Part shown: piece by piece, positions 1 to 63,865 of the stretch
Layout: every line of letters starts with the position of its first letter
Position numbering within the stretch: the first letter of the stretch is position 1
Assembly (NCBI GenBank): GCA_951406725.2
Contig: OX597832.1
Coordinates: 42,098,001 to 42,162,000, forward strand
Length of the DNA stretch: 64,000 bases
Origin: Octopus vulgaris
Lineage: Eukaryota
Direction: 5' to 3'
Notes under the pieces: model-generated
Database searches by the model: none
Seen by the model: only the letters and a program-made list of their open reading frames with translations
What the model was told of the DNA's origin: nothing
Program-made: the position numbers and the translations under genes

Positions 1-106
1 CTCAAATACCAGTGGTAGAGTAATATGCTTTATTTAAAGTAGCAGAAAATTCAACAAAACCTGTTACTCGGAGTTTCTCGTTGCTGTTCATTGGACAGTT
101 TTTGCT
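1..106 (-). mobile_element. Same family, single arm truncated by window edge
   Basis: Sequence matches 63710-63825 in reverse orientation. Core decayed to CCAATGA. Ends in (TA)n. Confidence 0.75.
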
Positions 107-674
107 AATATATATATATATATATATATATATATCTTCCTCTTTATTGTTACTATCATCAATAAACTCCTCATTGAATATCACTGCTGCTGCTATCCTA
201 GTCTTCTTTAATGCCACCAGCACCACCTATCCAATGTCATCTTAACCACCACCCCCGCTATCATTATTCCCCACCACCATCACATAACCACTGGCATCAT
301 CTTCACTACTACCCCATCCTCCCCAACCTTACCTTTCAAAGATTGATTCCATAAAAGCATTACAATTGCCTTTGTTTAGAGATGATCACATTCAAATTTA
401 GAAGAAATAACAAAATCATCATCAACCAGGTTCCAATAAATGGACCAATTAAATAATGTAGCCCAAGGTAGACTTACACCTAAAACATAAAATTAAAGAC
501 AGGACGGCCACAGTTCAAATGTTTAGATCTTTAGTCATGCACCTGCTAAATCAGTTGTTCTCAACCATTTTCTGCCTGTGGACCCCTTGATTACTATTTT
601 ATGCTGATGGACCTTCATAGCTGTTCGATGGGTGACCTTTTAGTATTTAAACTGGCAATATCACCCCCAATAAT

Positions 675-1335
675 CAGAATCTGAACTCAGAATGTGAAGA
701 CAGACGAAATACCTATTTCTTTACTATCCACAAGGGGCTAAACACAGAGAGGACAAACAAACGAATTAAGTCGATTATATCGACTCCAGTGCGTAACTGG
801 TACTTATTTCATAGACCCTGGAAGTATGAAAAGCAAAGTCGACCTCGGCGGAATCTGAACTCAGAATGTGAAGACAGATGAAATACTTATTTCTTTATTA
901 CCCACAAGGGGCTAAACACAGAGAGGACAAACAAGGACAGACAAACGGATTAAGTCGATTATATCGACCCCCCAGTGCGTAACTGGTACTTATTTAATCG
1001 ACCCCGAAAGGATGAAAGGCAAAGTTGACCTCAGCGGAATTTGGACTCAGAATGTAGCGGCAGACGAAATACCACCAAGCATTGCGCCCAGCGTGTTAAC
1101 GTTTCTTATTTCGTTATTGCCCACAAGGGGCTAAACATAGAGGGGACAAACAAGGATAGACAAAGGGATTGAGTCGATTATATCGACCCCCAGTACATAG
1201 CTGGTACTTATTTAATCAACCCCGAAAGGATGAAAGGCAAAGTCAATCGCGGCAGAATTTGAACTCAGGACATAACGGCAGACAAAATATGGCTAAGTAT
1301 TTCGCCTGGCGTGCTAACATTTCTGCCAGCTCGCC
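675..1335 (-). mobile_element. SINE family B, tandem array
   Basis: Repeated unit of about 170-220 bp with GAGTTCAAATTCCGCC (B box) and GCCTTTCATCCTTTCGGGGTCGATTAAATAAGTACCAG (resembles the Deu/Nin-type SINE central domain). Confidence 0.85.
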
Positions 1336-60274: not shown

Positions 60275-60908
60275 GTAAGAGAGAGAGAGAGAGAGAGAGA
60301 GAGAGAGAGATGGACAAGGAGAAGGAGAGAGAAAGAGAAAGCGAGAGAGAGCGAGAGGTAGAAGGAAAGCGCGAAGACGAAAGAAAAAAGAGTTAAAGAG
60401 AGAGGAGTAGGAAGCGGGAAAGACGTAATGACATTGAGGGAGAAATAGATACATAGAAATAAGGTAGAAGGTTGAAAAGAGAGAGGGGCAGAGAGAGGAT
60501 GCTGTGGACACGGAGTGAGACAGAGGACACAGTGGACTGGGCGAGAGAGGGAGAGGGAGGGAGAGATAAGAGTGAGAGAGAGAGAGATAAGAGTGAGAGA
60601 GAGGAGGGAGAGATAAGCGTGAGAGAGAGAGGGGGATAGATAAGAGTGAGAGAGAGATATGAGTGAGAGCGTAGTAGAGAGAAAGAAAGAGGGAATCAGT
60701 GTGAATGAATTAAGGAGAGGAGTTGAGGAAAAGGAAGTTGAGAGAATGTGTGTGTGTGTATATGTGTGTGTGCGAGAGGGAATGAGAGAGAGAGAGAGAG
60801 AAAGAGAAATAGAGAGGGAGAGATAAGAATGAGAGAGAGAGACGGAGAGATAAGAGTGAGAGAGGGAGGAAGAGAAAGAGTGAGAGAGAGACAGAGGGAG
60901 AGAGAGAG
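60275..60908. repeat. GA-rich low-complexity tract
   Basis: (GA)n and GAGATAAGAGT units; (CT)n and (CTAT)n follow at 61280-61485. Confidence 0.9.
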
Positions 60909-63624
60909 TCCTTACATAAGTTTAGTCTTTTCCCAGAGATCGTCTGCTAAGGGAGGCAGACGATAGATTTTGGCGGAAGACTTTCAAAGAAAAAAAAACA
61001 ATAATAGCCAAAATGTCCCAGTTTCTCGAATTCAAAAGAACACGGAATTGTATGAGTTTCGTCCCTTCTGGCTGCACCGAAAGAACGGGTGACCTTGGTT
61101 CGGCAAACTGGAACTTTTCTTCCGTATATTTACATAATAATATACAACAGCAGAAGGAAACACGGTCAGTATGGCGATGTTTATATTTCTTTTCTCACTC
61201 ATATTCAAACAATCACGCACCAATCAATCAATCAATCAATCAATTAATCAATCATTCAATCAACTAATCATTCACTCTGTCTTTCTCTCTCTCTCTCTCT
61301 CTCCCTCTATCTATCTATCTCTCTCCCTATCTCTCTCTCTCTCTCTCTCTCTCCCTCCCTCTCTCTCTCTTTCTTTCTTTCTTTCTCTCTCTTCTCCCTC
61401 TCTCTCTCTCTGTCTATCTATCTATCTATCTATCTATCTATCTATCTATCTATCTATCTATCTATCTATCTATCTATCTATCTATCGATCGATCGATTTG
61501 TGATGAACATATTGATATTTTGGTAAATAATCGTTGCTAGAAGTTTCGTGAATCGCAAGTCCCAATGGTCGAGTGTTCAGCCCTTTTGACCTCAGATGAC
61601 CGTGAGATGTGAGGTGAGTTGTGACTTTCATGCCTTCACCAAGGACATTAGGTGATTGAATAAGTGATGTAGATTATGTACTGGGTGTTGATGAACCGTG
61701 CGTGTGTGTGTATATATATACATACACACACACACATATACATACATATATATATATATGTATGTATGTATATATATATATATATATATATATATATATA
61801 TATATATATATATATATACATGTATATATATATATGTATATATTTATAAATACACACATATATATATACATACATATATATATATCTATATACATATGTG
61901 GATATATATATTCTATATATATATTTAGATACATATATATGTAGATGCAGATACACACATACAAGCATACATACATATATATATATGTATATATATATAT
62001 ATATATATATATATATATATATGTATATATATATATATATATATATATATATATCTATCTATATATATATATATGAGCGTGTGCGTGTGTTTGTATATAT
62101 ATTAAAGTACATATATATAGATAGATATGCTATTTCCAGTAAATATTGGTGCATTGTTGTACCACTATTCTATATATATATGTGTGTGTGTATATATATA
62201 TATATAAATATATATATATATATACAGGCACACACATAAACACGCGCGCGCGCACACGCACACACAAATACAAAGGCTTTGGGGAGGATTTCTCTGGGTA
62301 CCTTTTCCCAAAAATCTGCAGTATATCCGTGGATCTTCTGAGATTTCAGGAAAATCCCACGACAAAGTGTACGAGATAACACCACGCTCTCATAGGCCTT
62401 ATGTGTGTGTGTAGATGTTTGTGTGCATTTTGTATGTGGTGGGTGTGTATATGTGTGTCAGTGCCTGTAATTATATACCATACATATGTATGCATATATA
62501 TGTATATATATATATATATAAATATATATATATATATACATATATACATATATATATATACATATGTATGTATGTATATATATATATATATATATATATA
62601 TATATATATATATATATATATATACATACATACATATATATATATATATATATATATATATACATATGTATGTATATATATATACATATATATATATATA
62701 TATATATATATATATATATATATATAACATATATACATATGTATGTATGCATATATATGTATATATATATATATATATATATATATATATATATATATAT
62801 ATAAACATATATATGTATATATATATATATATATATATATATACATACATACATATGTATATATATGTATATATGTATATATATATATATATATATATAT
62901 ATATATATATATATATGCATACATACATAATGTATATATGTGTATATATAATATATATATATATATACATATATATATATATACATATATATACATATGT
63001 ATGTATGCATATATATGTATATATATATATATATATATATATATATATATATATATATACACACGTATGTGTGAGTGTATATATAAGTATTTCTTCCTCT
63101 CTTTCTTTCTCATCCTCTTTTTATCCATATGTATTATACACACACACACATGCAGCTAATTCCGTTGCATCAACAAACTTATACACACCTACACACTCAT
63201 ATATATATATATACATACGAACATATATATATATATATATGTGTAGGTATATATATGTAACTATGTACATGTGTATATATGTGCATGTGTGTATGTGTGT
63301 GGAGTCACACTAGCAATGTTTGCTGCGGTTTGTTTGTCCTTACGTGCAGTGCTGTTAATATTTTGTTGACATTCGTTTTTCTGTGTATATATTTGTGTAT
63401 ATCTGTATGTATGCGTATGTATTGTGTTTGCTTGTTTGTGTGTGTGTGTGTGTGTGTGTGTTTGTAACTTTGTGTGTGGTTATGGGTGCGTGTGTATATC
63501 GATGTGTGCTTATTTGTCTGCGTGTGTTAGTCTATTTTTGTTATTGTTTATGTGTATATATATATATATATATATATATATATATATATATATATATATA
63601 TATATATATATATATATATATATA

Positions 63625-63865
63625 CTTTATTTTAAGCAGCAGAAAATTCAACAAAATCTGTTACTCTGAGTTTCTCGTTGCCGTTCATCAGACAGTTTTT
63701 GCTAGAATGCATTCTAGCAAAAACTGTCTGATGAACGGCAACGAGAAACTCAGAGTAACAGATTTTGTTGAATTTTCTGCTGCTTAAAATAAAGCATATT
63801 ACTCTACCACTGGTATTTGAGTACTCTTTTTTCCACCTTGTTTCACATTTATGTGTTTACTCCGG
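63625..63865. mobile_element. PLE-derived non-autonomous element with 170-bp perfect palindrome and an HHR motif on each arm
   Basis: 63625-63709 is the exact reverse complement of 63710-63794. Each arm has CTGT-CTGATGA-ACG(GCAA)CGA-GAAA-CTCAGAG-TA-ACAG (+ 63724-63761; - 63658-63695). Flanked by (TA)n. Confidence 0.8.

Follow-up and report, generated by a model that had tools for sequence, protein, structure and literature searches.

Hammerhead motifs of Penelope type in a 64-kb window of Octopus vulgaris, and an abundant tRNA-headed family that may use a Penelope-like enzyme

Minimal type I hammerhead ribozymes are carried by the Penelope-like elements (PLEs) of metazoans, where they are marked by an extra base after position 9, a G10.1-C11.1 pair and a palindromic 15.2-16.2, and where most occur singly or on opposite strands, 100-700 bp apart, as probable truncated PLEs (PMC4209133). 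The PLE motifs tested cleaved weakly and only as dimers (PMC4209133), and what the hammerhead does in PLEs is described as unclear (PMC8557442). PLE insertions include an inverted 5′-truncated copy, carry a tail at one end only and lie in (TA)n or other microsatellite targets (PMC8557442). Animal retrozymes are defined by head-to-tail tandem units (PMC7229834; bioRxiv 10.64898/2026.07.22.740005). Here, 64,000 nucleotides of Octopus vulgaris DNA (assembly GCA_951406725.2, contig OX597832.1, positions 42,098,001 to 42,162,000 of the forward strand; the whole stretch is called the window) were analyzed for hammerhead motifs and for the elements that carry them. Twelve motifs were identified by homology: seven arms at four loci of a palindromic family (P), two arms of a tRNA-headed family (T) and one each in F40, F39 and H57. 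The window-wide pattern is known from other animals and, given the PLE content of Octopus, is to be expected; more worth pursuing is family T, which by the evidence of public contigs is a discrete, very abundant family resembling short interspersed elements (SINEs), and not one chance junction.

Compared with the minimal hammerheads of metazoan PLEs, F40 and T have the same core boxes, extra base after A9, G10.1-C11.1 pair, short stem I and palindromic, loop-less stem III, and the window, like the genomes described, holds several families mostly as single or opposite-strand copies (PMC4209133). Family P departs from that type: stem I has 9/10 pairs, stem II is weak and ends in a GNRA loop, the four pairs of stem III surround an unpaired base, and core position 4 is probably C (U4C). 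H57 departs from it in a 54-nt branched stem II and the absence of the extra nucleotide (PMC4209133). The window loci also share inverted 5′-truncated copies, a one-sided tail and microsatellite targets with PLEs that encode an endonuclease (EN+ PLEs), although the P tail is ~70 nt long, against the 30-40 nt described for Naiads (PMC8557442).

The type I hammerhead-shaped motifs are real. A strict descriptor (the core, with stem I of at least 4, stem II of at least 3 and stem III of at least 2 pairs) found three sites in the window (40648+, 57018+ and 7646-) and none in any of 100 shuffles in which dinucleotides were kept inside 500-nt blocks. A second descriptor, devised post hoc once family P was known, dropped stem II and required a Watson-Crick palindromic stem III; it found four sites (40648+, 57018+, 63728+ and 63691-), against a shuffle mean of 0.035, with four reached in 0/200 shuffles. 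When the core was relaxed, five sites were found, two of them evident noise (34332 and 42771), the shuffle mean was 1.57 and five were reached in 2/100 shuffles; this descriptor is weak in power, so decayed motifs were identified by homology to intact ones and not by shape. An earlier reading made without database searches (the sequence-only reading) had counted about 12 intact or decayed motifs, all of which were found in place. The core (CUGANGA, GAAA, UH) is perfect in six of the 12 (63728+, 63691-, 7939+, 7646-, 40648+ and 57018+) and has one to three changes in the other six (16082+, 16084-, 18297+, 18272-, 94- and 3919+). That reading's assignment to PLE-type type I hammerheads was likewise borne out. 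The extra base after A9 together with G10.1-C11.1 is present in F40, F39 and T (majority letters) and absent in P, and H57 has G10.1-C11.1 with no extra base after position 9. Stem III is an exact palindrome in F40, H57 and the T majority, and in P is palindromic around one variable central base. No site of the U3-A8 core variant was found in the window. No hammerhead model was among the best 150 of 361 Rfam matches to the window, which were microRNA models driven by microsatellites, nor in three local Rfam scans; exact-pattern scans for extra copies in two metagenome, one genome and one viral collections gave 0 matches. Minimum free energy folds of single copies mostly did not yield the hammerhead fold. 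Microsatellites and SINE-like repeats abound in the window, which is rich in AT.

The T locus at 7603-8030 consists of two arms in head-to-head orientation. The right arm (+) begins with a tRNA-type head (7784-7851), whose A box (7791-7801) and B box (7836-7845), recognized by their general consensus, are each decayed in this copy, and continues through an (AAT)n tract (7852-7878) into a minimal type I hammerhead (7934-7979) with an intact core (7939-7945), an extra A, stem II, GAAA (7967-7970) and a loop-less stem III. The predicted cut lies at 7974|7975, after a GUU triplet, and is followed by a 3′ tail (7980-8030) that, by comparison of the arms, is confined to the right arm. The inverted, tail-less left arm (7603-7695, -) is 80/92 identical to the right, has its hammerhead core at 7646-7640 with a GUC site, matches the strict descriptor and is followed by a spacer of single-copy contig depth (7696-7759) and an inverted copy of the first 22 nt of the head (7760-7781). 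No tRNA was found in the head of this copy by ARAGORN or Rfam, and its fold z was 0.68. The T unit is short (~250 nt), non-coding and dispersed, with flanks that vary at both ends.

To characterize T beyond this copy, contigs of four public runs, three of them DNA-like (X1, X5 and X6), were compared with 7450-8040 at 80% likeness. The three DNA-like runs held 32,213, 31,254 and 19,816 T-matching contigs. Summed depth on the element was 0.45-11 million, against ~59, 52 and 7 on single-copy parts, giving a raw ratio of 48,000-290,000, or 1,600-9,300 after division by 31 for overlapping words; as this ratio is not a copy number, T is read only as present in thousands to ~10^5 copies. Run X9, presumably of RNA, was given no weight for expression, as contigs reveal neither RNA ends nor levels. 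The high genome-wide count expected by the sequence-only reading thus holds at least for T. In 4/4 runs the majority letters at 7793, 7794, 7834 and 7840 restore the A and B boxes, the majority letter at 7948 (7636 on the left arm) gives a five-pair Watson-Crick stem II with G10.1-C11.1, and that at 7971 gives a palindromic, loop-less stem III. No change of at least 20% was listed at 7974, so GUU is the usual T triplet. Loose contig ends lay behind 7691 (125 in X1, 118 in X6 and 74 in X5), so that in other copies, too, the AAT tract immediately precedes the ribozyme part. Contigs break at this tract, and two among the pieces listed bridge the head to the ribozyme part (X1 record 2 and X6 record 18); both come from other copies, since they differ from the locus by 10 other letters and 11 gaps. 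Depth before the tract and after it was of the same order, which, together with the fixed position of the tract and the bridging contigs, argues that the T head and ribozyme part belong together. In 9 of the 15 T joints listed an inverted arm was joined to various points of a direct arm, as would be expected if other T copies were also head-to-head insertions with a truncated partner. Depth was high up to 8029 and gave way to loose ends of low agreement. Contig joints and loose ends at the predicted cut site (7975) were considered as evidence of cleavage and rejected, since a variant with a small GT-repeat deletion would account for them just as well.

Family P was found at four loci. The pair at 63625-63865 lies head-to-head in (TA)n, with intact cores at 63728+ and 63691-, a ~70-nt tail on the right arm only and arms that are 84/84 identical. 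The pair at 18132-18363, in TA-rich repeats, has a tail on the left arm only (arms 78/80) and cores broken by U4C and G8A in both arms. In the head-to-head pair at 15947-16148 the inversion centre lies at the core start (16082-16084), and the tail is again on the left arm only (arms 64/70). The fourth locus is a single arm (1-107, -) whose 5′ end abuts (TA)n, whose core has U4C and G5A, and which the window edge truncates. Thus 3/4 P loci lie in TA-rich repeats as head-to-head pairs, of which one arm alone has the ~70-nt tail. Arms are more alike inside a locus than across loci (52/64 to 73/80), and the inversion centres vary between loci while falling on short palindromes; this pattern fits foldback copying of both arms from one template, or later homogenization. 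As G8A is present in both arms at 18132, either catalysis was not needed for insertion or the arms were homogenized afterwards. Stem I has 9/10 pairs, stem II is weak, with two pairs under a GNRA loop, and stem III has four pairs around one unpaired base; variation outside CpG falls mostly at unpaired or mismatched positions. The family architecture described by the sequence-only reading needs correcting for P in two points: stem II, which is weak and without G10.1-C11.1, and core position 4, which is C in 4/7 arms. The P core states (U4C, U4C with G8A, U4C with G5A, and canonical) are all derivable by CpG decay from a U4C ancestor, so that the core at 63728, although canonical, may have arisen by decay too. 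A natural hammerhead U4C variant has lowered activity in vitro (PMC3088659).

Two further observations concern the edges of P. The 5′ strand of stem I (63709-63718 and 18280-18287) is immediately preceded by a pyrimidine-rich stretch that ends in AG and resembles a 3′ splice site, and three P loci have their 5′ ends close to this point; in Drosophila virilis Penelope the intron end maps to the 5′ end of helix I (PMC4209133). A SINE-like copy at 63867-64000 abuts the (TA)n flank of the element ending at 63865.

The remaining three families are represented by fewer copies. F40 is a 176-nt piece (40605-40780, +) that is flanked on each side by a (TA)n tract and occurs once in the window. Its minimal PLE hammerhead (40644-40678), textbook in form, has a GUC site with a predicted cut at 40674|40675 and shows all three PLE marks: the extra base after position 9, G10.1-C11.1 and the palindromic 15.2-16.2. 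The self-dimer fold of F40 showed pairing through a palindrome, yet not the active fold. H57 (56926-57310, +) contains a hammerhead at 57013-57095 with a perfect core, a 54-nt branched stem II, a palindromic stem III and a GUC site with a predicted cut at 57090|57091; its tail ends in (TA)n, and a 14-nt inverted copy of its own 3′ end lies upstream at 56926-56939. F39 (3852-4037, +) has a decayed hammerhead at 3919 with three core changes, including U at position 6, and relatives at 57718-57888 (-), where part of the core is deleted, and at 22916-22957, where only the tail is present. Two F39 copies begin at the same 5′ position, and U at core position 6 in both (3919-3925 and 57718-57888) may be a family trait and not decay. 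F40 and F39, taken by the sequence-only reading as one type (40644 and 3915), had no significant BLAST similarity (best E 0.23) and are separate, which gives five families in the window.

A broken PLE reverse transcriptase (RT) was located at 39530-40226 (+), as the sequence-only reading had proposed for 39480-40200. It comprises the last RT motifs, the thumb and the start of a CxxC linker in two broken frames with stops and a frameshift, and a SINE cuts it at ~40219. A phmmer search with one RT frame gave 30 matches at E<=1e-3. Domain scanning of 17 homologues found RVT_1 weakly in five and GIY-YIG in two; homologues P0008 and P0012 carry the CxxC linker with GIY-YIG, and P0012 has both domains. 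With P0012 (RT, CxxC linker, GIY-YIG) as query, tblastn matched 39559-40226 in two frames (E 1.3e-19), the match stopping at the linker start. No GIY-YIG domain was found downstream of the local RT, Pfam scans of three frames of the region gave no match, and neither did two word-indexed protein searches with RT pieces. The homologues resemble the EN+ PLEs Neptune and Nematis in having RT, a CxxC linker and GIY-YIG at the C terminus, from which the local RT differs in being a broken fragment that ends at the linker (PMC8557442). By the domain criterion of PMC8557442, and not by a tree, the sequence at 39530-40226 is classed as a Neptune/Nematis-type PLE RT. F40 lies 380 nt downstream on the same strand, with a SINE and two (TA)n tracts between them and no EN domain found; F40 was considered as a candidate pseudo long terminal repeat (pLTR) of the neighbouring RT.

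From the observed motifs and their geometry, the family status of T and the identity of the RT, we infer an enzyme partner, transcription of T by RNA polymerase III (Pol III), foldback and any cleavage, in an account with two layers that we regard as probable: P, F40, F39 and H57 would be pLTR-type 3′ ends of PLEs, and T a Pol III SINE inserted by a PLE enzyme in trans. For the first layer, a PLE RT/GIY-YIG enzyme would prime at a nick in (TA)n and copy just the last 150-400 nt of its RNA, hammerhead included; foldback or a strand switch at a short palindrome would often produce a head-to-head pair with a tail on one arm, and CpG decay would later erode the cores. For the second, Pol III would make a ~250-nt RNA, and a PLE RT/GIY-YIG protein would bind its pLTR-like 3′ part, prime at a nick and copy it in trans, often adding an inverted partner arm. 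PLE-type insertion is supported by the inverted pair with a one-sided tail at 3/4 P loci and the T locus, and by the 14-nt version in H57. The inserted DNA covers the predicted cut site, so the copied RNA template must have been uncut there; moreover, a loop-less stem III cannot close within one molecule, so the monomer is predicted to stay inactive and cleavage to occur only in dimers. The ribozyme may serve as a recognition structure, as a dimer-dependent brake or as a device relevant only in tandem source copies. The elements and the RT total ~3 kb of 64 kb by coordinate tally; with 190 families, PLEs account for 6.83% of O. vulgaris (PMC13282606 supplement), so the density is unremarkable.

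Several results weigh against this two-layer account. For none of the five families did the 64-kb window yield an autonomous PLE with shared sequence, and no sequence link was seen between the local RT and any of them. P is without G10.1-C11.1, and U4C is probably ancestral in that family. The covariation that was looked for in P stems did not appear (0 two-sided changes), in a comparison that is uninformative with six arms from four loci, two of which have stem I cut by the inversion. Three of the four P loci begin within ~10 nt of one point, and such a near-constant start suits a fixed small element better than random truncation. The T locus lies outside (TA)n, with no target-site duplication of at least 6 nt found there, and T copies end in low-agreement loose ends with short AT-rich repeats, which a tail of the kind left by long interspersed elements (LINEs) would also fit. 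Of the 220 T joints 15 were listed, and of the 87,236 contig pieces 32; repeat joints at 80% likeness can be false. Of the several non-autonomous families claimed by the sequence-only reading, T is a family of its own; P, F40, F39 and H57 may be either non-autonomous families or cut-off ends of autonomous PLEs.

Within this account, the stronger proposal is that T is a true SINE with a PLE, and not a LINE, as its autonomous partner; SINEs are normally tied to LINEs. On this proposal, to which we give an even chance, a tRNA promoter was joined to a pLTR end together with its minimal hammerhead, and the resulting unit spread to dispersed sites in the tens of thousands, with inverted ends of PLE type. 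The conserved T ribozyme, inactive as a monomer by prediction, may then be a PLE recognition signal, or act as a brake that depends on concentration, cutting the RNA upon dimerization alone. The foremost alternative, which we consider unlikely, is that T is an ordinary LINE-mobilized tRNA SINE that once captured a piece of pLTR as its body, the hammerhead being a passenger and the inversions secondary. It would account for the A and B boxes, the SINE-like size, the variable AT-rich 3′ end, the absence of a (TA)n target at the locus and the majority triplet, GUU being a weaker hammerhead cleavage triplet than GUC. However, both arms at the locus extend outward past the ribozyme, so that the 3′ part is duplicated, and LINE twin-priming inversions are not known to duplicate the 3′ part; inverted junctions are also many in other copies, and the majority sequence keeps the core, stem II and stem III intact.

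A second alternative, which appears quite unlikely, would make all five families retrozymes of the non-LTR type (LTR, long terminal repeat), with tandem source arrays elsewhere, circular RNAs formed by double cleavage and dispersed monomers as the copies seen here. The window families do resemble animal non-LTR retrozymes in being small, non-coding and hammerhead-bearing, and for those a pLTR origin and PLE enzymes have been proposed (PMC7229834; bioRxiv 10.64898/2026.07.22.740005); it is likely that the two share origin and enzyme. Dispersed monomers are common for retrozyme families of vertebrates (bioRxiv 2026.07.22.740005), the fixed 5′ ends in P (3/4 loci) and F39 (two copies) hint at discrete units, and a few 'goes back' joints among the T joints listed indicate partial tandems. 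Retrozymes, however, are defined by tandem units and circular RNAs (PMC7229834; bioRxiv 10.64898/2026.07.22.740005), and no head-to-tail unit was present among the window loci, for which reason the elements were not filed as retrozymes and the label given to them by the sequence-only reading is not supported. No end-to-start joint of T was among the joints listed, the motifs are of the minimal PLE type and not the canonical type with loop contacts, and the copies hold one polarized tail end with no circular permutation.

That 7784-8030 is a one-off junction, formed when a simple tRNA SINE received a PLE end in its (AAT)n tail, would suit the preference of PLEs for microsatellites (PMC8557442) and the breaking of contigs at the AAT tract, with just two bridging contigs among those listed, but is highly improbable given that both of these come from other copies, that in 74-125 contigs of each DNA-like run the tract precedes the ribozyme part at a fixed position, and that depth is similar on the tract's two sides.

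The closest described counterparts of T itself are the schistosome elements Sm-alpha and Sj-alpha, short non-coding retroposons in which a Pol III promoter is likewise followed by a type I hammerhead (PMC6765202). These are often tandem and are released from multimeric transcripts by cleavage (PMC6765202; compared with T by description only), whereas T has a loop-less ribozyme of PLE type, a dispersed head-to-head insertion and a one-sided tail. T also resembles the Octopus SINEs OK, OR1 and OR2 in being tRNA-headed and very abundant (Ohshima and Okada 1994, as cited in PMC4824008 and PMC4758252, where OR1 or OR2 is cited as a CORE-SINE); no link to hammerheads or Penelope is mentioned in the available text of the two citing papers. 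T may be identical with OK, OR1 or OR2, or be a SINE catalogued in Repbase or Dfam whose ribozyme went unnoticed. The words 'ribozyme' and 'hammerhead' are absent from the text and supplement of the O. vulgaris repeat paper (PMC13282606), and 'Octopus' from the available main text of PMC4209133. A literature search that covered few subscription journals found no paper describing PLE-derived minimal hammerheads in Octopus; for the combination of tRNA or SINE, hammerhead and Penelope, the same search, which did not extend to Repbase or Dfam and is not proof of novelty, found Sm-alpha as the only precedent. With thousands of copies, T offers natural variation and a compact substrate for asking which RNA features a PLE enzyme needs, and could show whether cleavage helps or limits PLE transposition. 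If T is a PLE-partnered SINE, the role of the hammerhead in PLE transposition becomes testable on a 250-nt RNA.

Other repeats of the window were recorded alongside these families. A ~250-nt tRNA-type SINE with no hammerhead core occurs at 677-1344, 51620-52101, 56235-56850, 3335-3566, 32706-32866, 47207-47353 and 54615-54774. It forms clusters at short stretches of shared sequence, with copies nested, inverted or in partial tandem, and apparently inserts into its own copies. The clusters at 677-1344, 51620-52101 and 56235-56850 were considered as PLE-like and set aside, because they have no hammerhead core and their layout fits copies inserted into each other. Two further SINE-like families are abundant, one at 22466-22888, 41310-41758, 55005-55422, 44126-44401 and 63867-64000 and the other at 4768-5040 with about nine relatives; a copy of one of them is the SINE that cuts the PLE RT. 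A ~390-nt repeat with CCCTAA-like units (38995-39379, 43407-43808 and 52963-53651, the last a large inverted pair) resembles Helitron-related non-autonomous elements. A decayed LINE RT of CR1/L2 appearance, spread over several frames, was found at 25370-26931 (-); a piece related to it lies at 10573-10887. A coding-like exon at 33659-33931 (-) ends in a probable splice site and resembles the start of an AMMECR1-family protein. A single-exon WD40 open reading frame at 49830-50948 (+) is 95% identical to O. bimaculoides WDR53, the next matches being at most 61% identical.

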